Notes under the pieces: generated by a model
Told to the model about the DNA's origin: nothing
Databases searched by the model: none
Seen by the model: the letters and a program-made list of their open reading frames with translations, nothing else
DNA from: a virus
Taxonomy: Duplodnaviria > Caudoviricetes
Length of the DNA stretch: 60,984 nt
Virus record (IMG/VR): IMGVR_UViG_3300009161_000006
Span: 1-60,984 of that record
Reading direction: 5' to 3' (one strand)
Program-made: the position numbers and the translations under genes
Shown: piece by piece, positions 1 through 42,199 of the stretch
Layout of the letters: every line of letters begins with the position of its first letter
How positions within the stretch are numbered: position 1 is the first letter of the stretch

Positions 1-123
1 AACTTTTGGGTTGACTCCAAGCTCGGAGCAAGTCCCATTACAAACAAATTACATTACCAACTTTAACTTTTTAACTCAGTATCTTCCTGATACTTATGAG
101 AAAGAATTTGAGCGTTATGGTAA
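1..123. repeat. Terminal direct repeat / assembly overlap, left copy (identical to 60862-60984)
   Basis: Exact 123-bp match between the two window ends, inside the capsid gene; implies a circular or permuted unit of 60861 bp. Confidence 0.97.
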
Positions 124-1420: not shown

Positions 1421-1438
1421 TAATAATTTAATTTTCAA

Positions 1439-1469
1439 AAGGAGGGGCGCTTTGCTCCTCCTTTATTTT
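1439..1469 (+). terminator. Intrinsic terminator after capsid gene
   Basis: AAGGAGGGGC-GCTTT-GCTCCTCCTT hairpin followed by T-rich tract. Confidence 0.7.
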
Positions 1470-1494
1470 AGTAACTAAATCAAATCAAATAATA

Positions 1495-2241
1495 ATGAAA
1501 AAAAACACAACATCAGTAGATAAGACCTACAAGCTAAAAAGCAATGCAACGCCAATCTCTTTTACGTTGCCATCAAGAAACACAACTAGGTATCCACTTC
1601 TTTATTTTGATGAAGAGAACAATATGAACAGAGCTTTGCGATATGCAAGAAATCAAAAATCACCATTTGAAGATGAACAAGACGGAAACTTTCTTCTTGA
1701 ACCAATAATCTTTGATGATGGATTTCTAAGTGTCCCAAGAACAAATCCTGTGCTACAGCAATTTTTACATTATCATCCATTAAATGGATTCGCTTTTGTA
1801 GAAGTAGATAAAACAATTGATGCTGCTCAGGAAGTTGAGATGCTAAACTTTGAAGTAGATGCATTGATTGAAGCTAGACAATTAACTATAGAGCAACTTG
1901 AAGTAGTAAGTAGAGTTATGTTCCAAAAAGATGTAACAAATGTATCAACTGCAGAATTACGCAGAGATGTATTGATTTATGCTAAAAGAGAACCTAAGTC
2001 ATTTTTAGAGATATTAAATGACCCTTTACTTAAACTGCAGTCTAATGTTCAAATGTTCTTCTCAAGCAATATATTACAATTTAGAAATGGACAGCGCGAG
2101 GTGTGGTATAATACTAAAAGCAATAAAAAGAAAATGATGACTGTACCATTTGGAGAAGACCCATTTGAAACAGTTGCTTTATATTTAAAGTCAGACGAGG
2201 GTATTGAGGTATTGAAGTTCTTAGAAATAAGTTCAAAATAA
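1495..2241 (+). CDS. Conserved virion-module protein downstream of capsid
   Basis: 248-aa ORF with AAATCAAAT-type leader; position in head module. Confidence 0.6.
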   Translation: MKKNTTSVDKTYKLKSNATPISFTLPSRNTTRYPLLYFDEENNMNRALRYARNQKSPFEDEQDGNFLLEPIIFDDGFLSVPRTNPVLQQFLHYHPLNGFAFVEVDKTIDAAQEVEMLNFEVDALIEARQLTIEQLEVVSRVMFQKDVTNVSTAELRRDVLIYAKREPKSFLEILNDPLLKLQSNVQMFFSSNILQFRNGQREVWYNTKSNKKKMMTVPFGEDPFETVALYLKSDEGIEVLKFLEISSK

Positions 2242-2285
2242 TTAGTATATTTGTACTTTATTAACCCATTTAAACTTTTTAAACG

Positions 2286-2576
2286 ATGGAAAAATTTTTA
2301 GGAATTACAGTAACAGGTCAACAAGTACAAATAGTATCTGCAACAGGTATTGTATTAATTGAGCAAGACTCTACAACAACAGTTGGGATTCATTACAAAT
2401 CATCTACAGGTACAGATGTTGTAACAATTACACATGCTACAGCAGGAGCAGGTGATGAAACTATGCGTGATGCAATTCAAAATGCAGTTGTTGCTGCTTT
2501 GACAACATCGTGGACAAATGTTTTATACACTGTTGAAAATTTACCTTATGCAGTATCAAATATTTCTATAGCGTAA
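2286..2576 (+). CDS. Small putative structural/decoration protein
   Basis: Thr/Val-rich 96-aa ORF, preceded by TATATTTG (2246) and followed by a terminator. Confidence 0.5.
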   Translation: MEKFLGITVTGQQVQIVSATGIVLIEQDSTTTVGIHYKSSTGTDVVTITHATAGAGDETMRDAIQNAVVAALTTSWTNVLYTVENLPYAVSNISIA

Positions 2577-2597
2577 TATTAATTAATTTAGAAACAA

Positions 2598-2630
2598 AGA
2601 GGCGCTTTAATAGAGTGCCTTTTTTTTTAT
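2598..2630 (+). terminator. Intrinsic terminator
   Basis: GAGGCGCTTT-AAT-AGAGTGCCTT stem followed by a long T run. Confidence 0.7.
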
Positions 2631-2638
2631 TATCTTTG
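2631..2638 (+). promoter_or_regulatory. Bacteroidota primary-sigma -7 element TAnnTTTG. Other + copies: 2246, 9448, 10487, 42747, 43255, 45403, 46807, 48823, 52986, 59688. - strand copies: 30295-30302, 34645-34652, 42260-42267
   Basis: Matches to TAnnTTTG recur just upstream of gene starts on the coding strand; established Bacteroidota promoter consensus. Confidence 0.8.
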
Positions 2639-2653
2639 TAAAAAGAATAGCGT

Positions 2654-3643
2654 ATGTCTGTAATGATAAACTCCGTAAGAAACACTGTAATAGCCATATT
2701 AAATAAAAATAACTATGGATATATTTCTCCATCTGATTTTAATTTATATGCAACTAATGCGCAAATGGAACTTTACGAAGAGTATTTTAGTAGCTATAAT
2801 AAATCAATATTAGCTGAAAATGCAAGGTCATCAGGTTCTGATTACGCAGATATTAGTAAACCTATTATGGAAGTAATGGAAGGTTTTTTAGAAAGTGATT
2901 TCATTTTCCCACAACTTTCAACTTCAGGTAATCTAACTAATAATTTTTATCTTCCATCACCAACTACTGTTGGTAGTTCTGCATATATGATTAATAAAGT
3001 AATTGTATATACAAAAAAAATAATTAATGGAACAAACACTTCACAATCCAACTTTCAATTAATAGATGCAACAGTAAACTTTCCTGCTTTAGGCGTTAAA
3101 GTTGGAGATATTGTTTTAAACTTAACAACATTCCAAAGCTCTACTGTACAGTCTTTAACTACTTCAGTAGATACATTAGACTTACAAGATAATATTTTTC
3201 AGAATTTATTAGCAGGAGAAAAATATGCAATATATTCAGGTTCAAATTATTCTGAAGCTGAAAAGGTTTCAAATAGTAAAATACTTTTATTGCAAAATTC
3301 ATCGATTACAAGTCCAACATTGATGTATCCATCTTATACAAATATAAGTGATTATATGTCTTTATATCCTATAAGCATACAGGGTTATGGAGCAGTAAGA
3401 AATGATTATTTTAGATATCCTAAAGACCCTAAATGGACATATATTTCTTTAGCAAATGGTGAGCCTGTATTTGACCAATCACAACTTGATTACCAAGACT
3501 TTGAATTACCAATTGAAGATGGGTATAAGTTAGTAATGAAGATATGTCAGTATTGTGGAGTATCAATTCGTGAAGCGGATGTTGTTCAATATGCAATGGC
3601 TCAAGAACAACATGAACAGCCATCATTTAGTATGCAACAATAA
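2654..3643 (+). CDS. Head-tail connector / tail ring protein
   Basis: Position between capsid and stabilization genes; N-terminal NKNNYGYISPSDFN and C-terminal YFRYPKDPKW motifs typical of this phage group. Confidence 0.6.
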   Translation: MSVMINSVRNTVIAILNKNNYGYISPSDFNLYATNAQMELYEEYFSSYNKSILAENARSSGSDYADISKPIMEVMEGFLESDFIFPQLSTSGNLTNNFYLPSPTTVGSSAYMINKVIVYTKKIINGTNTSQSNFQLIDATVNFPALGVKVGDIVLNLTTFQSSTVQSLTTSVDTLDLQDNIFQNLLAGEKYAIYSGSNYSEAEKVSNSKILLLQNSSITSPTLMYPSYTNISDYMSLYPISIQGYGAVRNDYFRYPKDPKWTYISLANGEPVFDQSQLDYQDFELPIEDGYKLVMKICQYCGVSIREADVVQYAMAQEQHEQPSFSMQQ

Positions 3644-3653
3644 ATAGTAAAAT

Positions 3654-4577
3654 ATGACATATATATCACAATACGAATATTATGAAAATAATGGTAATAA
3701 CCCTGAAGACTTAAATTGGGGGTCTTATCAATATGTTAGTTTAGCTGATGTTGTAACTAATTTTCTTTTAATGTATTCGGGAAACCACTCATTAGTAAAT
3801 AATGAGGAGAGGTTCAAGATATTGTTCCACGCAAAGCGTGCTGTTCAAGAGCTTAACTACGATGCGTTTAAAGAGATAAAAGTTTTAGAACTAAATGTTC
3901 CAAATACATTACGATATATTCTACCATCTGATTATGTAAATTGGGTAAGGATATCGGTATATGAGAATGGCGTTCTAAGACCATTAAGTGAAAACATACA
4001 GACATTATCTTCAGGAGCATACCTTCAAGATAACCTTTCAAATATATTGTTTGACCAAAATGGAAATGCTTTATCTCCTCAGAACTCAGCTATAGATTAT
4101 GATAGAATTACAGGAACAAAAAAATCAATCTATCTAAACAAAGGGAATCAATTTGATAATCAAGCAGGGTATAATGTAGATGGTTTTTGGTATTTTGATT
4201 ATGCAATTGGAACAAGATATGGACTGAATACAGAGACCGCAAATGCTAACCCTACATTTAATGTAGATAAAAAGGCAGGTGTGATTAATTTTGATTCAGG
4301 AATGTCAGAGCGATTATGTATTCTTGAATATGTTTCAGATGGTATGGAGAATGGAGACAATTCTCTAATAACAATAAATAAATTATTTGAGGCTTATATT
4401 TATGCTTACATAAAATATGAGGTTTTAAACGCTAAATTCGGCGTTCAAGAATATGTTATTCAAAGAGCCAAAAAAGATAAGCAAGCATTATTAAGAAATG
4501 CTAAGATAAGAATAAGTAATATTCACCCCGGAAGACTTTTAATGAACTTAAGGGGCTTAGATAAAATACTAAAATAG
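3654..4577 (+). CDS. Tail ring / tubular structural protein
   Basis: 307-aa ORF with LPSDYVNWVRIS motif, tightly coupled to the next gene. Confidence 0.6.
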   Translation: MTYISQYEYYENNGNNPEDLNWGSYQYVSLADVVTNFLLMYSGNHSLVNNEERFKILFHAKRAVQELNYDAFKEIKVLELNVPNTLRYILPSDYVNWVRISVYENGVLRPLSENIQTLSSGAYLQDNLSNILFDQNGNALSPQNSAIDYDRITGTKKSIYLNKGNQFDNQAGYNVDGFWYFDYAIGTRYGLNTETANANPTFNVDKKAGVINFDSGMSERLCILEYVSDGMENGDNSLITINKLFEAYIYAYIKYEVLNAKFGVQEYVIQRAKKDKQALLRNAKIRISNIHPGRLLMNLRGLDKILK

Positions 4578-7500: not shown

Positions 7501-9432
7501 GAGAGTTATAAAATTAGAGACTCAATAATTGGTAGAGAGTTTAATCTTGGGGAAAGAGTAACCTCAGTCTCTGCGCAAGACTACAAAGAAGCGCATAGGT
7601 TCTCGGATATTACTTATAGTGGGGTATATAACCCTGAGTCAAATCTAAATAAGCTTAATGAGTTTAATTTAGGTCTTCTAAACTATAAATATTTAGAGTC
7701 ATCTTTTGGGTATATCTATATATTAGATGGTAGAGAGACTGATGTTTTATGTATCCAAGAAGATAAGATATCGTATGTATTAGCAGGCAAGAATTTATTG
7801 TCAGATGCAGGTGCAGGGCGAGCGCTACTTGCTGTACCTGAAGTATTGGGTACTCAGATTGCAAGAACTGAAAAGTTTGGCATAAGCCACAACCCTGAAA
7901 GTTATGTTCAATGGGGTGCTGATAGATATTTCACTGATGTAAAAAGAGGCGCTGTTATACAGCTCCAAGGAGACTCAGCACAAAACGATAAGTTACAGGT
8001 GGTATCAGAGTTTGGTATGCGAACATGGTTTAGAGATGAATTTATCTATTCACAGACTACACAGAAACTTGGAGGATATGACCCGTATATGAATGAATAT
8101 GTTTTGACTAGCAATGACATTAGTATCCCAATAGTAACGGAGTGTTTTGATTGCGACCAAGACAATACATTTTCAATAGACAACTCTTCTAACTCAACGG
8201 ATAGAGAGATAAATTATTGTATTGAATTAAATGATTGTATTGGAATTGGAACTATTACCATAGCAACAACATCTATATCTTTAGGAGGAAGCTTTACTGT
8301 ATCAGCTACCTATGATGGAACAACAACTTCAACATTAATAACAAGTGTCGGAATAGATACTGTTAGTTATAATGTAAATAATCCGTCTGTTCTTACTCTT
8401 GAAATTAATATAATTATATCTGCAGGTTCAACAATTGGATTTGATATAAACAATGAATGTCAAGAATGTGAAAAAATAAAACTAATTGAGGTAGTAATTA
8501 CTGATAATAGCAATGCAGGATTTTTCATTCATAATCAATATAACTATACTGATGTAACAATACCTTATACATCTCCATTACAGAGCAATCAAGTTACATT
8601 TGCTTCAGGTACAGCTGTTCCACTTGTTTCATATTATAATGCAGCGGTAGGATTCCAAGGACAGGGTAGCTTCCCTTACCCCGGAGTAGATATGACACTA
8701 TATACAAATAAAATTGGGTTTGATAACTATGACTTTATTGACCCTCCGAATAGATTTTTATGGACAACCACAAATATTAATTATCCAAATACACCTGCAG
8801 CTATAGCAACACTACTATCAATAGCAAATGTTGTGACTCCAATAGTAACTGTTGGAAATCAGAACTCCGCAGTTTTTTCTGTGCCAAGCTTATTTGATAA
8901 TCTTTATTTGATTTGGGACTTAAGAAGTACCACTGAGGTTGAATTATGTTATAGCGAAGTGAGTTGTGATGTCGCTTGTCTCGAATGCTCGGTTTGTGAG
9001 TGCGGAACATGGTTGGTAGTAAATAATACCGGAGAGTCTTATTTTGGTGTTCAGTATGTTAATTGTGATGGACTTAATGCTGTTATTGGAGAGTTTGACC
9101 CTGTAAGTTATACGTTCCCTAGAGACGCAGGTATATTTATATGTGCTAGGGACTTCCTTATCCCTGAGCGAATCCCCGGATTTACATATACATATATAGG
9201 TTGCTATTGTTGTGCAGAATGTCAGTCTTATAGCATATTTAACTCGGGAGGAGAAGATATAGCATTCACAGGTGAACTTCTATGCGGTGGAGGCGCAACT
9301 ACGCTTAATTTCCTTGCAGGACAAACATATGAATACTGTATGTCTAGTGTTATCTCGTACTTTGATGTGAGTTTAGGTATTGACTATGTTGAAAATCTAA
9401 TATTTACCCCGATAGAATGTAATTGCGGTTAA
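4579..9432 (+). CDS. Tail stabilization / nozzle protein with Cys-rich C-terminal extension
   Basis: N-terminal FVAGKMNK..DER..P.GEY.DA.N and internal FAYRY, NRLMYGNY, FGISHNPES, GGYDPY motifs of podovirus stabilization proteins. Confidence 0.75.
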   Translation: MPKFSRNFVAGKMNKTFDERVVPNGEYIDAMNVRMGSTENSEFGVIENTKGNVPLTALKFLNTPLSVDARCIGAYEDGAMETVYWFVHDPNFPLGLTGKLDLLVSFNTNNSFLTYHVITIDNGGNINTTLNFNPKYLITGVNKIENLLFFTDNYNAPRVININRNYAVPSGAPLTDAGGIAAALLLEESLLVIKKPPTESPTVQLLNTVGQQNFLEERFISFAYRYLYADGEYSATSQWSDIAFAPNGFEVTVEAYLNEGMINSFNACKVTYYTGDSLVVGIDLLFKQSESNIIKIIEKQNKQDLGIPNNIYTSISFDNSKIFTTLPESELLRLYDNVPRFAQAQTLMGNRLMYGNYIEGYDLVTSLGNPVQFTYETALIQEVIGFEALLTSKQTSTYLIDGSHTVPFSILRIDFANLIPYASNLIAGASIGISIEFIHESFTGSPFLMGVTPNTFVSATFFLTSSYSSPYDLAQSVEFQDWIGTVANILPVYDPIPSNPTSCDGYTLTDRFNCLTPVNLAFNFEKRAAGINAVAEPIKIISSNLNSYIDLQIVATKYEQLTSPGTYGYEYYQIIDEFVTFSKVGQIRSLHSNRGYEVGIVYMDDFLRSSTALVSVDNTVYTPCSSSVNQNSIRVTIPTSQVAPYWATRYKFVIKPDQEGYQTVYSTLLYIDTANNSLYWFLLEGENQQKVEVGDRLIVKKDSNGATQECVYTTVLEKGSQAFPFPGVYMRLETINFAATIPSIPPYTDSNSGVKITRVYWSEPGGPPWTDIDVPAGSVIGIMVYTYRKGTFDCSEKEVNSSQSYVYFTATNDYNSLEDWFTFNTSTIMSALIALPSTGMSIVYMGSFNNSESAMNTFVTAGAAANIMRLYINRDPADNRLTFWMSGTVQCTVFSDSISRLGFKISRAPVSPDFVFETAPIDALPDVFFENNLSFGITSIGEHEGNVQNQDFLMGQPAIINTGFFNCFSFGNGVESYKIRDSIIGREFNLGERVTSVSAQDYKEAHRFSDITYSGVYNPESNLNKLNEFNLGLLNYKYLESSFGYIYILDGRETDVLCIQEDKISYVLAGKNLLSDAGAGRALLAVPEVLGTQIARTEKFGISHNPESYVQWGADRYFTDVKRGAVIQLQGDSAQNDKLQVVSEFGMRTWFRDEFIYSQTTQKLGGYDPYMNEYVLTSNDISIPIVTECFDCDQDNTFSIDNSSNSTDREINYCIELNDCIGIGTITIATTSISLGGSFTVSATYDGTTTSTLITSVGIDTVSYNVNNPSVLTLEINIIISAGSTIGFDINNECQECEKIKLIEVVITDNSNAGFFIHNQYNYTDVTIPYTSPLQSNQVTFASGTAVPLVSYYNAAVGFQGQGSFPYPGVDMTLYTNKIGFDNYDFIDPPNRFLWTTTNINYPNTPAAIATLLSIANVVTPIVTVGNQNSAVFSVPSLFDNLYLIWDLRSTTEVELCYSEVSCDVACLECSVCECGTWLVVNNTGESYFGVQYVNCDGLNAVIGEFDPVSYTFPRDAGIFICARDFLIPERIPGFTYTYIGCYCCAECQSYSIFNSGGEDIAFTGELLCGGGATTLNFLAGQTYEYCMSSVISYFDVSLGIDYVENLIFTPIECNCG

Positions 9433-23885: not shown

Positions 23886-25342
23886 AACATCTCTTTTTTA
23901 AAATGGCTAATGGTATAATCTTTCTTCTTTATTACTGTTTTATATATATCTTTTTCAATTCCTCCATTTGTAAAAATCCAATACACATCATTATCTAATC
24001 TATCTTTAGTTGTCATTCTATCTTTGCTTTGCCAATAACTTGTTGCACTAAAGTCAATGTTATAGTACACCAAGCACTCTGCATTCCTTAATGATATACC
24101 TTCTCTACCTGACACTATCTGAAGCGCTATGTTTTTATTTGTCTCATCAAAAACACTTAGCTCTGTTGTCAAGTTATCCGCACCAAAAACTTGACTTAAT
24201 GCATTCAATTCTTCTTTAAATTTATAAAATATTCCGATCTTTTTACCATTAAATTTTTCTTTTATAAATTCTGCCTTTGATAAATCAATAATCATAGAGT
24301 TCCCACTTTCAAACTTTATCGTTCCTGAGTATAGTTGGTGAAGCTTCATCATTAACTTAACTGAAGTGTCTGCCAATATAACTTCATCCTTACCTTCAAC
24401 AACTAAGTCTTTCTTTAACTTATCTATTATTTTATAAGTAGATTGTTTTAAGTCAACATACATAACGTGTTCTGATGTCTGAACTTGAAACCCTGCCTCT
24501 AATTGAGTATAGTTAATGGTATATGGTTTCATTTTCTCAAGTATAGACGGCAATCCTTTTGAGTAGTCCCTAATAAAAAGTCCATTGATTTTTTTTTCGG
24601 TTATGGTTACATAGGAACTGCAAAACTTATAGAAACTAGCGAACTCACGGAATGGGTTAGTTGGTATACCATACACCTGATGGTACATCTGAGAATAACT
24701 CTCCGGCGTTGGTGTTCCCGAAAGTAAAATCACCATTGGGTTGTGTGCTTTAATTAACTTCTTCACTATCATAGCTCTTTGCGAAGGCTTTGGGAAAGCA
24801 CCCATACCATGGGCTTCATCTAAAATAATAAGGTCCCAAGGTATGTCAGGGTCTATCGTATGTAAGCTTTCATAGTTTATTACGCATAAAGAGAATGAAG
24901 GTTTCAATGTATCAAAGTCTGCTTCAATTGAACTGATAGCTTTCTTCTTAGTAACAAATAAAACATCTTGCGCTCTTACTTTATCGGCTATGCCAAAGCT
25001 TGTAAGTGTCTTACCTGTTCGCACTTCCATTGCTAGATATAAGAACCTATGTTCAAGTATAATGTCTTTACCCTTTGATATAATATCCTTTTGATAATCT
25101 CTAAACGTAAACTTATTTGATTCTAAATCTTTCATGGCTAAATCTTTATAGTAAATAATGCCGTCTGCTATACTCTTGATAATAGCATCACTCTTATTAT
25201 ATTTATGCACCTCAACATCAATGGCCGTTTTTCCTCTGCCCACCTTAGTAATTGTTTTTGCATCAACAATAGACTGCAATGTCTCACAGTACTCTAACAT
25301 ATATTGATTGCTACGGCCACTTATTCTCTCAATCATTGACAC
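23882..25342 (-). CDS. SNF2-like superfamily 2 helicase
   Basis: RDYQ, RTGKT, ILDEAH, LSGTP, EGISL, QSKDR motifs. Confidence 0.9.
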   Translation of the reverse strand: MSMIERISGRSNQYMLEYCETLQSIVDAKTITKVGRGKTAIDVEVHKYNKSDAIIKSIADGIIYYKDLAMKDLESNKFTFRDYQKDIISKGKDIILEHRFLYLAMEVRTGKTLTSFGIADKVRAQDVLFVTKKKAISSIEADFDTLKPSFSLCVINYESLHTIDPDIPWDLIILDEAHGMGAFPKPSQRAMIVKKLIKAHNPMVILLSGTPTPESYSQMYHQVYGIPTNPFREFASFYKFCSSYVTITEKKINGLFIRDYSKGLPSILEKMKPYTINYTQLEAGFQVQTSEHVMYVDLKQSTYKIIDKLKKDLVVEGKDEVILADTSVKLMMKLHQLYSGTIKFESGNSMIIDLSKAEFIKEKFNGKKIGIFYKFKEELNALSQVFGADNLTTELSVFDETNKNIALQIVSGREGISLRNAECLVYYNIDFSATSYWQSKDRMTTKDRLDNDVYWIFTNGGIEKDIYKTVIKKKDYTISHFKKEML

Positions 25343-27734
25343 TTGATTTTTTCCTTATTATAATCCATCTACCTCTTGCATCACGACCTTCTTCAGGAGC
25401 CACACCTTCCTTGAACAGTGCGTATGAAGATAACCATTTGTAAAATTTAGTCCTACTCATAGACATTCTTGAATGCGGTCCATAGTCAGGATATTCTCTA
25501 ACAAAGTTATCATACAAGTCATTTTTATATAATCTAATATCTGCATCTAAAACAATCTCTCTATCTTGGTCATCAATCAATCCACACCATTCTATAAACT
25601 CGTGACTTGTTTCTGCTGATAGCTGTCTTATTTTTAAGTTTACGAATTTTGATTTAACCAATCCTGTTACTAAAAAGTTTTGTAGGTTGTTCAGCATATA
25701 GTTATCAAACTCACACCAATCATCATCGTTCCAATCTCCAAACATTAATTTACCAAACTCATCCAATGGCGTATATGTTTTGGTATAGTGCTGATGCAAC
25801 TCCAACTCCCACTTCCTTCTTGCAAATGAATTACCTGCTCCTTTGATAGCATAGTTTGTAGTTATAGCAATCTTTGGTGACTTACTGAATGGTATCTTTA
25901 TCGCATCTTTATTCTTCTTCTCTAAGGTCATACCCTCTGTTACAACACTGAACAATCTCTCAAAGTCAAAGTGTTTCTTGACATCATCGAAGCATAGTAT
26001 CTGAGTGTCTGCTGACACCAACTGATAAGCAAATGAGCGTTCAAAAGCAAAGGACTTACCATCTATAACTACAAGTTTCTTCATGCAATTTAGTGAGTTC
26101 ATAAACAATCCCTTTCCTGTACCTCCTTCAGGGTTGTCACTAATCACCTCATCATTTAATATGATAGCCGGGCAGAATGATAAGTTCTTGTATCCGTGTA
26201 ATAAGAATCCGATCGTGCTCTCCATTGTACTTATTCTATTCTCATCTTGATTACATATGTTTCTAATAAATACTTTATAATCAAAATTATCACTTACCGA
26301 ACATCTATTAAAGTTCCTATTTATTATGTGGTCCTTCCAAACGTATCCACCCAAATCTAAATAGTCAATGGTTGTTATCTCAGTACCTGTGATTTTAACA
26401 GCGCAGTTCTTATAGTACAGGTAAGCTGATGTCTTTGTGTCCTCTATGAAATAGATGTCTATCGTAGATAGTAGAGATAGAAACTCTTCCTTAAAAAACC
26501 TAGTGTTATCGGCAAAGTAATTATATATCCCAATGTCATCTAACTCTAATAGTTGCGTAAGTATAAAGTCCTTTATTTCTTTCTCAGATGTATGGTCAAT
26601 TAAATTATTAGTAACCTTTACAAACACATAACTCTTCCCTCCTTCCGGACAGTATTTATAAAACCCTGAGTCTTCTAAAAACTTCTTGAATAGTATGTGT
26701 ATCATTTTAATAACACCCTTGTCATTTTTAGACCAAAATACTTGCTGTGAATTTTCTTCTTCTACTTTATTTAATACTGAGTCAATCAAGTCAACATCAA
26801 AACTTGAGGCTTGTAGCTGACTCTTTATTTCTTTTCTTGATACTCCTCTTCTTAACTTTTCTTTTATTTGACTAATCCTCTCATCATCCTCATAGTACTT
26901 TGTTCCAAAGCTTGATGTGTTTCTATAAGCAGAGTCTATTGTCATTGATATTTCTGAGACAGTAAAGTCATCCGTTGCATATTGGTTTAGAATATAAGAT
27001 GCAAGACTCTTGTTCACTCCAAATTCATTAAATGCCATAGCAAGTATAAACGTATTGTGATTACGCTGCCCATCTATCATTGGATACTTCTTGCTCCACC
27101 ACTTAACTAATATCTCCACAATCTTATTCTCATCTGTAATTGGTATAGTTGCAATGTCTCTATGCTTAATTACTTCATTGTATTCTATCTCTTCTATCTT
27201 GTCCCATATCGAAGAGTTCTCGTTAACGTGAATTAAGGGGTCATAGGACTCATAACAGACACGACTGATGTTCTTGCTTGTATTATCAAAGTAAGGCGAG
27301 TTAAAGTGCTTCTCAAGCGAATTAAAGTAGTTTGTATGGTTGTCTATTTCTTTTGGTATCTTAACTAATACTTTCAATCCATTTCCTGATGGAGATATAA
27401 ATACTGAGAAAACATATTTACTCTTTGTAAGCATCTCTTTATCCTGCAATAAATCTTTTTGTTTTGGGTATCCATCAAAATCCAAGCAGATAAGACCACT
27501 ATGTTCAATGATTGATGTATCCGCTCGTTTGTTGAATGTACCACTGAAACAAATTGACGGAAGCAACTTTTTCATTTCATTACGCTCACTCTTATCTTTT
27601 TCTAATCGTATCTTCTTAACTAACTCCTTAGTAGCTCCAACCTTTATTCTTTCTAATATCTGATGAACCTCACGATAGAAAGGTGTGTTGGTATCTTTTA
27701 TACTTTTAAATATGGTAATGCTGTATGTGTTCAT
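25329..27734 (-). CDS. Primase-helicase (BT4734/VirE N-terminal, primase C-terminal, P-loop helicase)
   Basis: LICLDFD, FISPSGNGLK, RVCYESYDP, GQRN, Walker A GGTGKG, CFDD. Confidence 0.85.
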   Translation of the reverse strand: MNTYSITIFKSIKDTNTPFYREVHQILERIKVGATKELVKKIRLEKDKSERNEMKKLLPSICFSGTFNKRADTSIIEHSGLICLDFDGYPKQKDLLQDKEMLTKSKYVFSVFISPSGNGLKVLVKIPKEIDNHTNYFNSLEKHFNSPYFDNTSKNISRVCYESYDPLIHVNENSSIWDKIEEIEYNEVIKHRDIATIPITDENKIVEILVKWWSKKYPMIDGQRNHNTFILAMAFNEFGVNKSLASYILNQYATDDFTVSEISMTIDSAYRNTSSFGTKYYEDDERISQIKEKLRRGVSRKEIKSQLQASSFDVDLIDSVLNKVEEENSQQVFWSKNDKGVIKMIHILFKKFLEDSGFYKYCPEGGKSYVFVKVTNNLIDHTSEKEIKDFILTQLLELDDIGIYNYFADNTRFFKEEFLSLLSTIDIYFIEDTKTSAYLYYKNCAVKITGTEITTIDYLDLGGYVWKDHIINRNFNRCSVSDNFDYKVFIRNICNQDENRISTMESTIGFLLHGYKNLSFCPAIILNDEVISDNPEGGTGKGLFMNSLNCMKKLVVIDGKSFAFERSFAYQLVSADTQILCFDDVKKHFDFERLFSVVTEGMTLEKKNKDAIKIPFSKSPKIAITTNYAIKGAGNSFARRKWELELHQHYTKTYTPLDEFGKLMFGDWNDDDWCEFDNYMLNNLQNFLVTGLVKSKFVNLKIRQLSAETSHEFIEWCGLIDDQDREIVLDADIRLYKNDLYDNFVREYPDYGPHSRMSMSRTKFYKWLSSYALFKEGVAPEEGRDARGRWIIIRKKSSVND

Positions 27735-33795: not shown

Positions 33796-34155
33796 TCATA
33801 ACTCTGCTGTAAAATCACAACCCCCTTGTTCTTTAATGCAATCTCTTATCTCTCTACCCAATAGCAAGTCGGCATAGTTACTCAATTCTTCAGTAGTAAA
33901 GAATGGTTTAATCATCTCATCATTGTAGCCATTATTGTTCTTAAAGAACTCTACAATTACATCGTACTTAGACCCTAAACTCTCCTCTATACTTTTAATC
34001 TCATTCTCCACCTCTTCTAGATGTTCCTCTTCATTGAAGTGATAATCAATGTACTCAGGTTGGCACTTATGTCCACCAAACCTACTTGCCGCTTCACTTG
34101 ATTGCAGCGCGAACCAAAACTTACCATTGATATCGCCTGCATAATATCTGCCCAT
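33796..34155 (-). CDS. Hypothetical protein (MGRYY.GDI.GKFWF family)
   Basis: 119-aa ORF; its first codons are duplicated upstream of the HNH gene. Confidence 0.65.
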   Translation of the reverse strand: MGRYYAGDINGKFWFALQSSEAASRFGGHKCQPEYIDYHFNEEEHLEEVENEIKSIEESLGSKYDVIVEFFKNNNGYNDEMIKPFFTTEELSNYADLLLGREIRDCIKEQGGCDFTAEL

Positions 34156-34690
34156 AACTAATTGATTTTTAGATTGTTAAACTTATTTACTATATTCCCA
34201 ACTGTTCTATGGTTTGTACCATATTGTTTTGCAATTTTTCTCATTGATATTCCTTTTTTAATTAAATTATTCCACTCTTTGTAGAATTTATTATTTCCTT
34301 TATCTTTTAATCCTGTATATGGTTTATGTAAACCAATATCGTATGCGTGTTTTGTGTTTTCACTTATTGTATGCCATTCTAAATTTTCCACACGATTATC
34401 ATTTTTAATTCCGTTTATATGATTAACGGTTTCTTTACATTGTGGATTTGGTAAATATGCAATAGCTACAAGTCTATGAATAAAATAATCTTTATTACTT
34501 ATTCTAACTTTAACATACCCTTTATGTCCTGTTTTAGATTGTTTAAGTTCTGTAAGTTTATTAAACTTTCTTTTACTAAATACTTTGCCTTCTTTAGTAA
34601 TAAAATAATCTTTTTCTATTTCTACCATAACATTTGTTTGTTTGCAAAGATACAAAACAATATGGTAATTACTAATACCTTCCCATAACT
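34142..34690 (-). mobile_element. HNH cassette bounded by 18-bp imperfect direct repeats (34142-34159, 34673-34690)
   Basis: Minus strand AGTTATGGGAAGGTATTA vs AGTTATGGGCAGATATTA; internal promoter 34645-34652. Confidence 0.7.
34158..34628 (-). CDS. HNH homing endonuclease (HNH_3 type, C-terminal HTH)
   Basis: IHRLVA..YLPN...VNHING.KNDNRVENLEW...EN..HA; start reassigned to ATG 34628 downstream of TATCTTTG. Confidence 0.88.
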   Translation of the reverse strand: MVEIEKDYFITKEGKVFSKRKFNKLTELKQSKTGHKGYVKVRISNKDYFIHRLVAIAYLPNPQCKETVNHINGIKNDNRVENLEWHTISENTKHAYDIGLHKPYTGLKDKGNNKFYKEWNNLIKKGISMRKIAKQYGTNHRTVGNIVNKFNNLKIN

Positions 34691-34762
34691 TATAATTTAT
34701 TAAATTTTGCTTACTCTGTAAGGTTTTCAGCATCCCCTTTGCACTCGTGATAGAGATACTCA

Positions 34763-35674
34763 TCAAACGCCATACATAGCTATCTCCTTAGATACTTTGC
34801 CGGTGTCTATGAACATCTGAAACTTTCTGCCAAGTTTTATTATACTCTTAACCTTATCTAAGTTTCCATTATACATTATAATTAATAGTGGTGTTACTTT
34901 TTTCATAAACGCATTATGATTTCCATTTGGATTGTTCACACTATAATCTACCAACATATAAAATAACTCATACCTCCTAATCATTTGTTTAACATTCTCA
35001 AACTTAGATGGCAGTCTAAACTCAAGCACCCCCTCATTCACATCAAACTCTTTTACAAGAGCGACCTGATACTTATCATGACACCCATGCCAATCCCAAT
35101 ACTTCTCAGTAGACTCCATTCGTCTATTGTTACAGCAATATTTTGTCCGCAACCTATGTCTATATAAAGCATATATGAGCCCACTATTTTTTCTTACGGA
35201 CTCCCTCAGTTTGTCACCACTCCACCCATTGACACCTATTGTTATGTGACCACCACATGAGTCATCACTCGGACTGAAATTATCATCTATAATTTTCTCT
35301 GCCTTGTAAAACATATCGAACACTTTGTTCCTCCACATACCTCTCGGCAATAGTGGTAGTATATGCGTTACAGCCTCATATCCACATGAACTATCGTACT
35401 CAAATCCACAGAACATTTCATGCTCATGTAGCGCCTCTTCGTCTAACTCATTTTTCTCCACCTCAAATCCTATTGTAAACCTTGACTGATACCCTGCTAA
35501 TTCATCGAACTCAATGTTCTTTCTCTTTGATATCGGTAGCCCATTTATATCTGTCTGCCACTTAGTCTTGTTCAACTTTAATGGATAAGCTTTATTATGG
35601 TATCTCACAACCTCACCTCTAATACTCTGATTTGTCTTGGTGTAAATAACACCTGACTTTTCACATTCTGTCAT
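34763..35674 (-). CDS. Putative amidoligase (COOH-NH2 ligase, Amidoligase_2-like) 2
   Basis: GFEVEK, EYDSS, YEAVT, SCGGHIT, LEFRLP motifs. Confidence 0.75.
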   Translation of the reverse strand: MTECEKSGVIYTKTNQSIRGEVVRYHNKAYPLKLNKTKWQTDINGLPISKRKNIEFDELAGYQSRFTIGFEVEKNELDEEALHEHEMFCGFEYDSSCGYEAVTHILPLLPRGMWRNKVFDMFYKAEKIIDDNFSPSDDSCGGHITIGVNGWSGDKLRESVRKNSGLIYALYRHRLRTKYCCNNRRMESTEKYWDWHGCHDKYQVALVKEFDVNEGVLEFRLPSKFENVKQMIRRYELFYMLVDYSVNNPNGNHNAFMKKVTPLLIIMYNGNLDKVKSIIKLGRKFQMFIDTGKVSKEIAMYGV

Positions 35675-35694
35675 ACATTTAGATTTAATTTGAT

Positions 35695-36144
35695 TTATAA
35701 TTTACCTTCGTCTACATAAGAGTAATATCCTTTTGACGTAACGATTACATGGTCTAATAGCCTTAAGTCCATTATCTTACACGCTTCATTTAATTTTTTA
35801 GTTAAGGCATCATCTTGCTCACTTGTTTTCAAAGCACCACTTGGATGATTATGACTCAGTATTATTCCTGTTGCTCCACAATTTAATGCCGTCACTAAAA
35901 TCATTCGTACATCTATTACAGTTGAGGTTATCCCACCTTGACTAAGTTTCTGCCAACCTATTGAACGATTTGCTTGATTGAAATAAATTACTATTGAACT
36001 CTCACAATAGTCTAATGTGTCCTCATCATACATCTTCTTCAATAATTTATAGCTGTCATCAGACCCCTTAATCTGAGTCGTAACAATCCCCGATGCCTTG
36101 TACTTCAGTGTAATCTCAGGCATATCACTCTTGTATTCTTTCAT
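35695..36144 (-). CDS. RadC-like JAB/MPN domain protein
   Basis: E...HNHPSG...S..D...LLDH motif. Confidence 0.9.
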   Translation of the reverse strand: MKEYKSDMPEITLKYKASGIVTTQIKGSDDSYKLLKKMYDEDTLDYCESSIVIYFNQANRSIGWQKLSQGGITSTVIDVRMILVTALNCGATGIILSHNHPSGALKTSEQDDALTKKLNEACKIMDLRLLDHVIVTSKGYYSYVDEGKL

Positions 36145-36156
36145 AAGTCTATTGGT

Positions 36157-36414
36157 TTAAGATTTAAAATAAAGCTCACCTACACTAAAGTATCTATCTA
36201 CGCTTTGATTCTCCACTATTGTTACCATAGAGCCATTGTTCAATCCATCAATATAGTATTGAGCGAATTGGTCACTTGAATCCTTTAGTAAATCAATCAC
36301 GTTATCTTTTGGTACTCTTGTTACACCACTCATTGGCGTGTGAGTAAATGCAATTCTAATCATTGGAAATACATTTCCGATTATGTTTCTGTAATGTCCC
36401 GCTTGTGGTTTCAT
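36157..36414 (-). CDS. Hypothetical protein
   Basis: ORF between GATase and JAB genes; start reassigned to MKPQ. Confidence 0.55.
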   Translation of the reverse strand: MKPQAGHYRNIIGNVFPMIRIAFTHTPMSGVTRVPKDNVIDLLKDSSDQFAQYYIDGLNNGSMVTIVENQSVDRYFSVGELYFKS

Positions 36415-36497
36415 AAGTTTAGTTTTTAATTGTGGCGTTAACGCCACTTTTGGTTTTCGTGCGTTATGGATGCGACACCCCCCTCGTGATAGCGAGG

Positions 36498-37409
36498 TTA
36501 GAATGGGACAGTCTCACACGTAGCGCAAATCACAGCCTTCCAATCTTCATTGTACTTTGCACCCGTGTTTAAACAGCTCTCACATTCATCTTCTTTTTGT
36601 AACGCATTGTAGTGGTCTGCCTGACAATACTCACAAGTGCCAAACTCTATTTCATTCTCCTCACATAGCGTCATGCCACAGTCGTAGCAAATCTCATCGT
36701 ATATATGCTCGTCTCTTGGTATATCTTTTTGCTTTTTTGTAGCAGGTTGCGACCAAGCGTATGAAGAGCCATACGATTGACCATATACGTTTCCCGGAGT
36801 ATATCCAACGCTACTACCAAGCGACCCTCTGTAGACTTTTGTTCCACCATAGTCAACATAGTTACTGACATACTTATATGAACCATTGGAGAACCAACAG
36901 CCATTAGCCCAATGCCCTGCTTTCTCATTGACAATAGCATATTCATTATTGGTATTCAAGAATACTAATTTGCTACCACCTATGAAGCCCTCAAGCATAT
37001 CAAGTATTATCTCATTGTACTCAAATCCCTCCGTGAAATTCTTGAGCACTACCTCGTTGAACATATAGGTATCCGAATAGTCCTTACTCGTAGGGACATC
37101 GTATATCATTCCGTTATGCACAAATCCTAAGTTATCATTGACCAAGAACGGATGACAATTTGTTTCATCAATCTTTCCGTGAGTACTGATTCGAAAATGT
37201 ATTACTATGTTTCGCTTACCATAACTCTTTTTTACCCTACTATATTCCTGATAGAACACCTCAAAGCTCTTCAACTCCTTGAATGTTTTCATTTGTTTTT
37301 TGTTGTCGATATATAACAAACCGGCACCATCGCCATTGTTATCCCAACAGTTTTTTAGTAGCTCTCTCTTAAGAGTAGCTTCTTTCTTATTCAAAATTGC
37401 TATACACAT
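36498..37409 (-). CDS. Class II (Ntn) glutamine amidotransferase with C-terminal Zn-ribbon repeats
   Basis: N-terminal M-C, N.DGAG, HFRISTHG, CHPF, HNG, SDT, WFSN; four CxxC pairs at C-terminus. Confidence 0.88.
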   Translation of the reverse strand: MCIAILNKKEATLKRELLKNCWDNNGDGAGLLYIDNKKQMKTFKELKSFEVFYQEYSRVKKSYGKRNIVIHFRISTHGKIDETNCHPFLVNDNLGFVHNGMIYDVPTSKDYSDTYMFNEVVLKNFTEGFEYNEIILDMLEGFIGGSKLVFLNTNNEYAIVNEKAGHWANGCWFSNGSYKYVSNYVDYGGTKVYRGSLGSSVGYTPGNVYGQSYGSSYAWSQPATKKQKDIPRDEHIYDEICYDCGMTLCEENEIEFGTCEYCQADHYNALQKEDECESCLNTGAKYNEDWKAVICATCETVPF

Positions 37410-37435
37410 ATTTATTAGATTAAATTATTAATTAA

Positions 37436-38644
37436 TTACGCTCCTACTTCATCATTATTTATTGAGTTACTCAACCCATCACTTTTAATTTTGCTTACAT
37501 CAATATTGTCAAGCACCTTGTTATTATACATCTTAGAGTATTGTATGAATTTATTAACCTTAGTTAGCAACTGCGATTGAGTATAAATTAACCTCAAGTG
37601 CTTGTATAACTTAGACCTCTGATTGACAATCATCTTGAGTACATCAACCTCCGAAGCATTGATATTGGTCATTATTATCCTCATTAAGTCACGTCTCCAA
37701 AGTAAATTTTTGATAGATTTTACAGAGGAAGGTAGCCTTATCTCCACCCTATTATTCTTGATATAAAAAGATGAGTATTTATCTCTCGTATAGAAGTACT
37801 CTTGCTTCTTCTTAGCTTTAGAGTATGTCTTATCGAGCCTATTCTCATACATTGAATAGAGCAGTGGTATAAACCCACTCATGCCCTCAAATAATTCATC
37901 AGGTGAATACTTAGTTGATGACACATTTATATGACCCCCACAATTTTCAGATGACTTGGCATTAATTAAGGTCATTAAGTCGGGGTCTTTTATATCATTG
38001 TCCATATCATTAGTGAACAAGTCAAAGGTCGGACTGACCAACTCATAGCCAATACAGCTATCTAATGACCCGTCATTCTCCTTGCCCCAACCTGTTCTAT
38101 CGTACACATCTCTATAGTATATTCCACAGGCATCGCCATCTTCCTTCTCCACCTCGAAGCCAACCCTCCAAACTGTTTTCTCAGTGGACTTGTCCCTTCG
38201 TGATAGCGATTGATAACTTGCATTATTTTCCGATTGGTCATCATCATCATCCGACTCATAATTTGAATCATAGTACTCATCTCGTCTGTCTGACCAATAG
38301 ATGCCATGGTCATTTGCTACGTCGCTGTCGGCATAAACTTCACCCCTACATTCTATTGATTCATCTCTGCAGAAGTATCCCTGAGCTCTTCTTGATACGT
38401 ATCCATATTGGCATCTATGGTTCTCTGTATCTATCCACTCATCATGATACTCTGAGTATGCTATGCTCTCATTACCTTCAATAAATGTACTGCCAAAATA
38501 TTCAGTATGCACATCATCATTTAGACACCATTCGTTCTCCATATCGGTCAAGGTACAGTCTGATTTCAACTCCCAAGTCCCATCGTGTAGTTCTACACAT
38601 AATTCTGCGGGGTGTACGTCCCCATTGCTTACCATTATATTCAT
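37436..38644 (-). CDS. Putative amidoligase (Amidoligase_2-like) 1 with acidic, aromatic N-terminal region
   Basis: GFEVEK, ENDGSL, YELVSP, CGGHIN, VEIRLP motifs. Confidence 0.8.
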   Translation of the reverse strand: MNIMVSNGDVHPAELCVELHDGTWELKSDCTLTDMENEWCLNDDVHTEYFGSTFIEGNESIAYSEYHDEWIDTENHRCQYGYVSRRAQGYFCRDESIECRGEVYADSDVANDHGIYWSDRRDEYYDSNYESDDDDDQSENNASYQSLSRRDKSTEKTVWRVGFEVEKEDGDACGIYYRDVYDRTGWGKENDGSLDSCIGYELVSPTFDLFTNDMDNDIKDPDLMTLINAKSSENCGGHINVSSTKYSPDELFEGMSGFIPLLYSMYENRLDKTYSKAKKKQEYFYTRDKYSSFYIKNNRVEIRLPSSVKSIKNLLWRRDLMRIIMTNINASEVDVLKMIVNQRSKLYKHLRLIYTQSQLLTKVNKFIQYSKMYNNKVLDNIDVSKIKSDGLSNSINNDEVGA

Positions 38645-38688
38645 AATAAATTTAATTTAATTGTTGCCTACTCTATTAGGTTTTCAGC

Positions 38689-39165
38689 TTACCCTTTATT
38701 GATTAAAAAATATCTTGGCTGATGAAAATCATCAAATCCATAGTCTTGCATTGAAATTATTGTTGTCCAACCTGCCTTCATAATTTCGTAGTGAGTTTGA
38801 CTTCTGCCTTCTCCTTCCGACCACGCTCCCAAAGTATACCAATCCTTATCGAAGAACTCTTCTATCTCTTGTTCTGATAGTTCTTCTTTAAATCTGTAGG
38901 TGGTTTTCCCATCAATTACATTGTAAATTTCGTTGCCTGATGCGTCTTCAAAAGAAAGTACACAATCATTGAAATCAATTTCATCAAAAGTGTAATAGGT
39001 ATATGTTGTTCCTTCACAACAAGGGCAACCACTTTCTATTGAAACATATTCTATACCTTCGTTTATTTCATCACAATTTCTTGCTATGATACATATGTGT
39101 TTATTTTCAATTCTCACATTATTGTCATGATAAATCATAAGCCACGACGTTATTTTTTCTTCCAT
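38689..39165 (-). CDS. Hypothetical acidic early protein
   Basis: 158-aa ORF with CPCC motif. Confidence 0.6.
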   Translation of the reverse strand: MEEKITSWLMIYHDNNVRIENKHICIIARNCDEINEGIEYVSIESGCPCCEGTTYTYYTFDEIDFNDCVLSFEDASGNEIYNVIDGKTTYRFKEELSEQEIEEFFDKDWYTLGAWSEGEGRSQTHYEIMKAGWTTIISMQDYGFDDFHQPRYFLINKG

Positions 39166-39495
39166 ACGTTCTAATTTTTAATTATTAATAGTAACCTCGA
39201 GGTTACTTTTGATTTATACTATTTTATTCATTGTAGTCATCGTAAATAGTAATCCTATACTTATTCAAAATAAGTGGTGCTTGTGCATTTTTCATAAGTT
39301 CCATTAATTCCTCTATAGTATTGATTTCTATTATCAATTCTTCTTCATCATATTCATTTAGTTCAGTTCTTACAATAAACTTAGAAGCTTCTTTGTAATA
39401 AGCCTTTGCAGTACCCCACGATGCACATTTTAACATAAATTCCATACTTTCTAATTTTTAATTATTAATAGTGGTTTCAAAACCACATTTGATTT
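39160..39495. repeat. 56-bp direct repeat (39160-39215, 39440-39495) with different central 16-bp palindromes
   Basis: TTCCATAC.TTCTAATTTTTAATTATTAATA-[GTAACCTCGAGGTTAC or GTGGTTTCAAAACCAC]-.TTTGATTT. Confidence 0.9.
39224..39445 (-). CDS. Hypothetical protein
   Basis: IEINTIEEL...ITIYDDY.E motif. Confidence 0.6.
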   Translation of the reverse strand: MEFMLKCASWGTAKAYYKEASKFIVRTELNEYDEEELIIEINTIEELMELMKNAQAPLILNKYRITIYDDYNE

Positions 39496-41160: not shown

Positions 41161-41178
41161 TGTGGTTTTGAAACCACA
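41161..41178. promoter_or_regulatory. Palindromic site TGTGGTTT(TG/CA)AAACCACA; copies at 39471-39487, 41161-41178, 41571-41588, 42074-42091
   Basis: Four near-identical 16-18 bp palindromes within 2.7 kb. Confidence 0.75.
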
Positions 41179-41548: not shown

Positions 41549-41612
41549 TTTTTTTTTATTAAAGTAAAAATGTGGTTTTGAAACCACACTATAAAAAATA
41601 TTCGTATACGCA

Positions 41613-41662: not shown

Positions 41663-42199
41663 TTACCCTTCTATCATGGTATCCATTTTGCGTTTAAGCA
41701 ATACAATAACTGCTTGAATTTGCGCCTTTGTTAGTGTACTTGTCAATTCGTCCTTATCGTTAATTGATAATTTTGACTCACCGAAAGTTAATTTTAGCTT
41801 AAATTCTTCCTTTTCTTTCGTTGGCGTATCGGTAGCGAATTTCAAAAAGTCCTGCACATTGTAGGAATCCCGAACTGAAGCTAAATAAGCGCCTTGCTTA
41901 TCGGCAAATTTATTTGCCTTAATTAATCGGTAACACCACGACTTTTCTTGAAATCCCAAGTATAAAAAGAAATCTTCCATTGTCCATTCAACGTCTGCGA
42001 CCTTGAAAAACTGTTTACATTCTTTAGTTTTGAAGTATTCAGCGCTTTCACTTACTAATTTCGCAAGACACATTGTGGTTTCAAAACCACACTTAAAACC
42101 TTGCGTTACGGCTGAATTAAGTTCGCTAATTTCTTGAGCGTTAATTCCTTTTCTTGCATTGTTCACTGCTTTGCTTTCATTCGTTGTTAATGTTTTCAT
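41663..42199 (-). CDS. First early gene, hypothetical (possibly DNA binding)
   Basis: Downstream of - strand promoter 42260-42267; contains one palindrome copy. Confidence 0.65.
   Translation of the reverse strand: MKTLTTNESKAVNNARKGINAQEISELNSAVTQGFKCGFETTMCLAKLVSESAEYFKTKECKQFFKVADVEWTMEDFFLYLGFQEKSWCYRLIKANKFADKQGAYLASVRDSYNVQDFLKFATDTPTKEKEEFKLKLTFGESKLSINDKDELTSTLTKAQIQAVIVLLKRKMDTMIEG

Follow-up and report, generated by a model that had tools for sequence, protein, structure and literature searches.

The stretch analyzed here (hereafter, the window) is the complete 60,984-base genome, with direct terminal repeats, of a virus of the Caudoviricetes (IMG/VR record IMGVR_UViG_3300009161_000006). 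On its minus strand lie five closely spaced genes that a preliminary description of the sequence had listed as two amidoligases, a glutamine amidotransferase with zinc ribbons, a small open reading frame (ORF) and a JAB domain protein, and the ORF list confirms all five in position as well as in order. In the direction of transcription, they encode amidoligase 1 (AL1; 402 aa, 37436-38644), a class-II, or N-terminal nucleophile (Ntn), glutamine amidotransferase-like protein (GATase; 303 aa, 36498-37409), the small ORF (96 aa from a GTG at 36447, spanning 36157-36447, or 85 aa from an ATG at 36414, spanning 36157-36414), a RadC-type JAB domain protein (149 aa, 35695-36144) and amidoligase 2 (AL2; 303 aa, 34763-35674). 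Successive genes are separated by 26, 83, 12 and 20 nt, and a hairpin element lies at either end of the block. On balance, the evidence presented below leans towards a cassette of mosaic structure within the pre-replication arm of a crAss-like phage from freshwater, in which AL1 and the GATase would form an amide-making core, AL2 would be an extra ligase, the remaining genes would be passengers and the hairpins would set the bounds.

The two amidoligases and the amidotransferase

AL1 and AL2 are paralogs, aligning at 26% identity across 183 residues in BLASTP (E = 3e-13) and with 99.8% probability (E = 1.1e-29) in a profile-profile comparison with hhalign. Both have abundant relatives: 850 homologs of AL2 were identified, and the search with AL1 gave 614 representative clusters. 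A search of the whole genome with PF12224 (Amidoligase_2) was blank, and sequence and profile searches of AL1 and AL2 against solved structures found no ligase. Among 44 diverse AL1 relatives, 11 match PF12224 at E ≤ 0.01 (best 1e-5), and none of 30 AL2 family members matches an amidoligase Pfam model, even at E ≤ 1.

The AlphaFold2 model of AL1, with a predicted local distance difference test (pLDDT) score of 95.1, returned 11 Foldseek matches at E ≤ 1e-3, all of them glutamine synthetase (GS) or gamma-glutamylmethylamide synthetase (GmaS), with the GmaS structure 7cql at the top (E = 3.9e-5). Structural alignment of the same model with VIA-align placed members of the GS, glutamate-cysteine ligase (GCL), YbdK, PafA and Dop superfamily in each of the first 19 rows (Z 8.9-5.3; root-mean-square deviation 3.8-5.2; 147-211 residues aligned), row 20 being unrelated (Z 4.3). 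Identity in the AL1 fold matches obtained with both tools is 10-16%. The AL2 model yielded the same picture in VIA-align, with the GS superfamily filling rows 1-19 (Z 8.6-6.3) and an unrelated structure in row 20 (Z 5.7).

A shared set of residues runs through both ligase lineages. Across 90 sequences, E164, E166, K167, D191, S193, G199, E201, C235, G236, H238, R269, E301 and R303 (AL1 numbering) are invariant, and in AL2 the invariant residues are E71, E73, K74, D94, S96, E100, C140, G141, G142, H143, R174, E218 and R220. The resulting motif, ExE...E...CGGH...R...ExR, lies on predicted strands. Its ExE...E...H...R...ExR residues would correspond to the metal and phosphate (ATP) sites of glutamine synthetase. 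Based on their paralogy, the PF12224 matches of AL1 relatives, the fold matches and the invariant residues, AL1 and AL2 are assigned to the GS-like carboxylate-amine ligase superfamily, and not to the Pfam family PF12224. The annotation of two amidoligases therefore holds for both proteins, with a GS-like fold in each model and an intact catalytic motif; the lack of such a fold, which had been named as grounds for rejecting the functional proposal of the preliminary description, is contradicted by the uniform top 19 VIA-align rows of the two models.

Outside its predicted GS-like carboxylate-amine ligase domain (residues ~155-402), AL1 carries an N-terminal beta-rich domain (~1-126) followed by an acidic linker. 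Searches with the N-terminal domain gave weak LIM/FYVE-like leads only (LIM at 0.79 in a protein atlas), and its Cys and His residues are not conserved. Positions ~100-184 of the AL1 family profile match ryanodine-receptor repeat chains in the PDB (6uhi, E = 1.3e-4), and no match to the Pfam RyR domain was found among 44 AL1 family members.

The GATase comprises a class-II glutamine amidotransferase (GAT-II) domain (~1-195), a Gly/Ser/Tyr-rich linker and two C-terminal zinc ribbons, which are indicated by four CxxC motifs at 241, 259, 276 and 295. Its match to PF13230 falls marginally below the family cut-off (E = 5.4e-5; 22.7 bits versus 23; approximately the first 105 residues align), a cut-off that the GATases of two related loci pass (L081, 25.3; L082, 24.9), and it also matches the N-terminal part of the GlmS, PurF and EgtC models, the last one weakly (TIGR03442, E = 0.0019). 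The protein starts with MCIAIL, and the cysteine at position 2 is invariant, together with R73, N99, G100 and D113. Among 118 related GATase ORFs, six are truncated at the end of a locus; the 112 that are complete begin with MC at the aligned position in 111 cases and with VC in one, the latter probably reflecting a GTG start codon. R73, N99-G100 and D113 are retained both in these 112 and in a set of 59 sequences, and we assume from GlmS and PurF that they are the glutamine-holding and oxyanion residues. At least one zinc ribbon is present in the partner GATases of 53 out of 68 AL1-type and 43 out of 44 AL2-type ligases. The class-II Ntn signature and the two zinc ribbons thus agree with the initial annotation of this gene. 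Complex prediction with AL1 residues 150-402 and GATase residues 1-200 scored 0.00 in both runs, an outcome that we treat as no answer and that has no bearing on their interaction either way.

Coupling of ligases and amidotransferases in related phages

To place these genes in context, viral loci were retrieved for relatives of AL2 (80 loci), AL1 (78) and the JAB protein (80), with at most 80 loci per set, and their ORFs were scored with the window proteins and profiles. In AL1-type loci the ligase and the amidotransferase are near-constant neighbors: a GATase is found in 73 of the 78, the remaining five ending at the ligase gene, and the two genes are separated by a median gap of 12 bp (26 nt in the window) and by 200 bp or less in 72 of 73 evaluable loci. 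The pairing of amidoligase and GATase as a phage module, as anticipated in the preliminary description, is therefore strongly conserved. This adjacency, the ligase fold and residues of AL1, and the retention of the N-terminal cysteine and the glutamine-holding residues in the GATase jointly suggest that AL1 and the Ntn amidotransferase are the working core of the cassette.

AL2-type loci follow a different plan. All 64 of those with at least 4 kb of downstream sequence hold a GATase, located a median of 1,718 bp away (range 61-3,782) past variable small ORFs, the commonest family of which is a 49-98-aa ORF present in 50 of 70 loci and lacking any tag-like feature. In 69 of 70 AL2-type partners the GATase is fused to a gamma-glutamylamine cyclotransferase (GGACT) domain, verified with Pfam in two of them (PF06094, E = 1.7e-20 and 7.5e-18), whereas GGACT is found in only 6 of the 78 AL1-type loci and nowhere in the window genome. 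The fusion points to gamma-glutamyl-type chemistry in the usual partner of AL2. Each of 36 near-complete AL2-type genomes encodes exactly one amidoligase. In one AL2-type locus (L004 386-1279, record G045), the AL2 ortholog is broken by a single in-frame TGA, which could mean that the gene is broken, that the sequence contains an error or that the codon is recoded.

A second ligase, in the order ligase-GATase-ligase, is present in 12 of the 78 AL1-type loci (L095, L119, L121, L122, L125, L127, L128, L130, L134, L135, L137 and L138). Phylogenetic inference with FastTree on 81 rows (19 AL2 loci subsampled, 40 of 59 single AL1 loci, identical rows dropped) resolved the first and second ligases into two different clades for 9 of the 10 two-ligase loci sampled, indicating that another phage group has a fixed two-ligase system. 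On the same tree, AL1 is sister to the L082 ligase (support 100; 76% identity in the catalytic part) and AL2 is nested within the AL2 clade (support 100). The two ligases of the window hence do not form a matched pair but fall in two lineages with different partners. The window combines the AL1-type and AL2-type arrangements, its paralogs having apparently been brought together from separate lineages by recombination. A scan of genome contigs gave only three AL1 relatives, all of them on contigs of metagenome-assembled genomes and hence uninformative about a cellular context.

Hairpins, probable passenger genes and genomic setting

An Rfam scan of the window returned only two matches at E ≤ 1, both to the DUF805b motif (RF02914), both on the coding strand and both above its gathering score of 35.6 bits. 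Copy 1 (38665-38697, minus strand, 42.7 bits) lies 20 nt upstream of the AL1 start and overlaps the stop codon of the preceding 158-aa ORF; copy 2 (34708-34740, minus strand, 39.3 bits) lies 22 nt past the AL2 stop codon and approximately 80 nt before the likely start of a gene for an HNH homing endonuclease. The element spans 33 nt in the window. An Rfam scan of the 11 closest loci found it upstream of the AL1 homolog in four (L082, L089, L090 and L094); it has the same position in L099, and second copies are found just before a p119 homolog in L082 and L161 (the hairpins of these two loci, first copies included, lie at 7924-7965 and 11740-11780 in L082 and at 3605-3644 in L161). A model built from nine copies identified only 10 sites in 100 sources totaling 1.58 Mb. 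Its 4-bp stem shows compensatory changes at three of four pairs, with a covariation of 0.569 against 0.145 in shuffled alignments, a value that none of 500 shuffles reached. Like RF02914, a candidate cis-regulatory hairpin, the window copies score above the gathering threshold and belong to a set of phage copies whose stem covaries; unlike it, they precede an amidoligase gene and an HNH/p119 block instead of a DUF805 gene. Where both ends are visible, in the window and in L082, the hairpins bracket the block, and the two copies probably mark regulatory or transcript boundaries.

The JAB protein, alone among the five in being readily recognized with profile libraries, is a clear RadC family member (PF04002, E = 4.5e-36; 123.9 bits versus a cut-off of 22.1). 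Its JAMM motif, HxHx7Sx2D, is intact (HNHPSGALKTSEQD, beginning at residue 98), and E48, H98, H100, S108 and D111 are invariant in six sequences. Its linkage to amidoligases, in turn, is sparse. The gene is present in 3 of 80 AL2-type and 2 of 78 AL1-type loci (5/158 overall), in none of the 12 loci with paired amidoligases, and, as a RadC homolog, in 4 of 50 whole records carrying an AL2 ortholog (2 of 36 near-complete ones). A single JAB query returned no viral loci, and the JAB set was obtained with an alignment query; in the 80 closest JAB loci, amidoligases appear in two and GATases in three, two of these three being contigs already counted. One of the four whole-record RadC homologs is a domain that forms part of an open frame of 2,666 aa in a related 63-kb phage (L025 record, G012:C1:41401-41727), which looks like a giant multidomain protein, possibly virion-delivered. 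Passages in PMC5512222 and PMC3239186 argue that RadC-type JABs lack the ubiquitin-tail groove and act on nucleic acids. As a stand-alone small protein among early genes, the window JAB resembles the solo versions that part of PMC5512222 describes in phages, and it differs from other RadC-type JABs of phages and conjugative elements in having no fused helix-hairpin-helix, ArdC or helicase domain.

Other genes of the block are variable too. The small ORF has 125 homologs of ~83-89 aa, lengths that favor the ATG at 36414 as its likely start, and it has no Pfam domain and no usable lead in the protein atlas; its C-terminus reads ...GELYFKS, and contigs from two sequencing runs (X23 and X4) skip or replace it. 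The HNH homing endonuclease (34158-34628, minus strand; PF13392, E = 1.1e-8; phrog_59, E = 2.4e-40), readable from a TTG at 34766 and likely starting at the ATG at 34628, is a mobile insert outside the enzyme set; a contig from the sediment run X4 joins 34131 to 34681, skipping the 549 nt that contain it. In L082, the order is AL1, GATase, four other small ORFs, JAB, an 86-aa ORF, p119 and DUF3846, with neither AL2 nor HNH. The JAB linkage counts, the variant joints in X4 and X23 and the L082 arrangement together suggest that the small ORF, the RadC-type JAB and the HNH gene are variable passengers in one transcription block, the JAB being a sporadic neighbor and not a conserved partner. Upstream of AL1, a contig from an RNA library (X24) joins 38697 to 39213, omitting the 158-aa ORF, and this joint falls exactly at the hairpin edge. 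Three slots (34158-34628, 38689-39165 and 36157-36447) are gene-exchange hot spots.

The cassette occupies the middle of a minus-strand gene block running from 42719 to 22799, which starts with many small ORFs and continues, past the cassette, into recombination and replication genes. This position plausibly fits early or middle expression, and it is from position that the term early is taken here. Contigs from RNA libraries span parts of AL1, GATase, JAB and AL2, which carries no information on transcription or its timing, and a promoter scan gave 62 sites against 64.2 in shuffled sequences, that is, no excess. In the small-ORF arm upstream of the cassette, the 16-nt palindrome GTGGTTTYRAAACCAC occurs four times (39471-39486, 41162-41177, 41572-41587 and 42075-42090), with none expected by chance; it may serve as an operator or a terminator, or be associated with a promoter. 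PADLOC returned no matches for eight proteins.

Elsewhere, the genome, with a G+C content of ~31-37%, carries genes for a terminase, a portal and structural proteins, a virion protein of 3,310 aa, a crAss-type muzzle-domain protein, GroEL and two GroES-like proteins. Replication is represented, at 25329-27734 and across the genome, by a BT4734-like primase/DUF5906 protein, a helicase of the SNF2 type, a Sak annealase and PDDEXK nucleases, and no DNA polymerase family was detected. Near-identical DNA is present in freshwater and sediment metagenome runs from 20 studies. One DNA run from another sample (X2) carries the whole stretch in the arrangement seen here, with 0-3 differences per contig; these contigs and the homolog numbers of AL2, AL1 and the small ORF indicate that the cassette genes are not chance ORFs. 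A DNA search of a phage collection found no cassette-like DNA, its matches being to HNH and to one AL2 relative.

Possible functions of the cassette and relation to known systems

A module of phage amidoligase and GATase was reportedly predicted by Iyer et al. 2009. The window resembles such modules (Amidoligase_2, PF12224, or COOH-NH2_lig, PF14395; UFV-P2 and OM43 phages) in that the early arm of a lytic phage carries a GS-fold ligase gene beside one for an Ntn GATase. According to passages in PMC3890496, the early arm of the LUZ24-like phage UFV-P2 (ORF21/23/25/28) contains a GATase gene, an HNH gene and genes for two ligases of GS type, and parts of PMC3890496 and PMC10580990 indicate that two ligases with an HNH endonuclease between them are a frequent arrangement. 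The window departs from these modules in that both of its ligases lie under every Pfam model, no ATP-grasp partner is present and AL2 comes from a lineage partnered by the GAT-GGACT fusion; its GATase is also shorter than that of UFV-P2 (303 versus 486 aa) and ends in two zinc ribbons. What the window adds is a pair of lineages invisible to Pfam, a hybrid arrangement and an association with a hairpin, and no new kind of system.

In the somewhat favored scheme of an AL1-GATase core within a mosaic cassette, AL1 would use ATP to activate a carboxylate as an acyl-phosphate, and the GATase would cleave glutamine and pass on the ammonia, the pair thereby forming an amide on a substrate, much as two-protein amidotransferases such as MurT/GatD do. 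AL2 would probably add another amide-forming step and, since its usual GAT-GGACT partner is missing in this phage, it would work alone or with the single GATase present.

Several observations weigh against this scheme. Neither AL1 nor AL2 has a Pfam match even at E ≤ 10, nor any match in NCBIfam or PHROG. The AL2 model reaches a middling pLDDT of only 66.1 and has no Foldseek match at E ≤ 1e-3, and VIA-align Z scores of 6-9 lie in a range that the tool itself calls common, the argument thus resting on the uniformity of the top 19 matches and not on their height. Every chemical step in the scheme is one that we infer. The GGACT fusion, moreover, would suit the ligation and removal of gamma-glutamyl amines better than plain ammonia transfer, and the Ntn domain could be a gamma-glutamyl amidohydrolase instead of an ammonia donor. 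Finally, the JAB gene stays a little downstream of AL1 and the GATase in the three closest relatives (the window, L082/L160 and L161); it lies inside the hairpin-bracketed block in the window and L082, and in L161, whose contig begins within the GATase gene, it precedes the second hairpin. A functional tie of the JAB to the cassette specific to this clade is accordingly conceivable.

A gamma-glutamyl cycle is an appreciable, if unlikely, alternative to the amide-making core. Here, the ligases would couple glutamate through its gamma-carboxyl group to an amine, for instance a polyamine, the side chain of a lysine or an amine of the cell wall, and the Ntn domain, with GGACT in relatives, would remove or transfer the gamma-glutamyl moiety, which could serve as a temporary protecting or activating group or sequester host amines. 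The 69 of 70 AL2-lineage partners that fuse GAT-II to GGACT favor this possibility, as do the identity of the best Foldseek match of AL1, a gamma-glutamylmethylamide synthetase, and the weak EgtC match of the GATase. The Ntn domain also retains residues for holding the moiety of a free alpha-amino acid, and these residues serve gamma-glutamyl amidohydrolases such as EgtC as well. Precedents for the combination exist in EgtA/EgtC of ergothioneine synthesis and GmaS of methylamine use, which act as gamma-glutamyl ligases and, in the case of EgtC, as an Ntn amidohydrolase. The window shares with them a GS/GCL-fold ligase and a class-II GATase-like hydrolase, which in those systems acts on a gamma-glutamyl amide, but it encodes no other genes of these pathways, and the likeness, at 10-16% identity, is one of fold, a level at which matches do not reveal the substrate. 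The absence of GGACT from the window phage and its scarcity in AL1-type loci (6/78) also count against a gamma-glutamyl cycle, and heteromeric glutamine amidotransferases show equally tight gene coupling.

A role in cell-wall amidation or peptide modification against superinfection, whereby the stem peptides of peptidoglycan, or some other component of the envelope, would be amidated or extended by the ligases together with the GATase, appears doubtful. The location of the module in the pre-replication arm is in its favor. None of the five proteins has a Pfam peptidoglycan-binding domain, the sole hint being non-significant PG_binding_1 hits in 5 of 30 AL2 relatives, all at E ≥ 0.11, and the zinc ribbons point to a macromolecular or protein partner in the cytoplasm. 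A comparison can be made with MurT/GatD, but MurT is built on a Mur-ligase fold and GatD is a GATase of class I (triad), whereas the window ligase has a GS fold and its GATase is of class II, and the logic that the two systems share is one that we infer. The likeness lies in the adjacency of an ATP-using carboxylate activator and a glutaminase that gives ammonia, and parts of PMC3267633 establish MurT/GatD as a glutamine-dependent, two-protein system for amidation of peptidoglycan glutamate. Passages in PMC10580990 ascribe a cell-wall proposal, made for phage modules of the phiEco32 type, to Iyer et al. 2009.

In a further, improbable reading, the hairpin-bracketed block would be a single regulated unit in this phage clade. 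The beta-rich N-terminal domain of AL1 and the zinc ribbons of the GATase would then serve for docking to a macromolecule of the host, on which the GATase and both ligases would jointly install an amide-linked mark, gamma-glutamyl or amidated. The co-transcribed RadC-type JAB would process the same target, and the DUF805b-like hairpin, whether as an RNA switch or as a site for protein binding, would couple expression to the pathway.

Hypermodification of DNA bases, in which the ligases and the GATase would complete the amide-bearing side chain of a modified base, pyrimidine or purine, in the phage DNA, is highly improbable: part of PMC8989533 reports amidoligase and glutamine-amidotransferase genes beside thymidine-hypermodification genes in viral contigs, but the neighbors in the 158 related loci are small early ORFs and not modification enzymes, and a Pfam scan of 70 window proteins (E ≤ 1e-3 or 1e-2), which very divergent companion enzymes could escape, found no kinase (such as a 5-hmdU kinase), amino-acid:DNA transferase, dUMP hydroxymethylase or TET/JBP protein.

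The preliminary description had proposed a writer/eraser set, in which a host target receives a tag from the two ligases, with the amide coming from the GATase, and the JAB removes the tag. The purposes suggested for it, superinfection exclusion or anti-defence, gain no support from the present data and are not contradicted by them. The tight packing of five genes on one strand, the intact JAMM motif and the position of the JAB relative to the hairpins in the window, L082 and L161 are compatible with it, and the presence of two paralogous GS-fold enzymes is reminiscent of PafA and Dop, both of them represented in the fold matches (4bjr, Z 7.8 and 6.6; 9cku, Z 7.3 and 6.8). In contrast to PafA/Dop, the window has no gene for a Pup-like tag and no proteasome context, and its paralogs stem from separate lineages; the small ORF, ending in ...YFKS, is replaced in variants and absent from L082. 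The JAB lacks a PADLOC match, which would cover Cap3- or Bil-type JABs, and RadC-type JABs are argued in the cited passages to have no tail-binding groove. Above all, JAB genes are not linked to amidoligases in relatives (5/158 loci, 0/12 two-ligase loci, 4/50 whole genomes and, conversely, amidoligases in 2 of the closest 80 JAB loci), the very outcome that had been named as telling against an eraser. The identification of a RadC-type JAB domain protein thus stands, its role as an isopeptidase-type eraser is unsupported, and these linkage counts bring the writer/eraser set close to refutation.

Together, these results bear on amidoligase-GATase pairs as a class, which are among the most widespread phage enzyme sets without an established substrate. 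They set a tight ligase-GATase core apart from its passengers, uncover two large amidoligase lineages that escape Pfam and tie a candidate regulatory hairpin to the ligase gene, while leaving the attractive writer/eraser account unsupported. The pairing of a whole ligase lineage with a GAT-GGACT fusion would, in addition, narrow the chemistry of these phage enzymes towards gamma-glutamyl amides.

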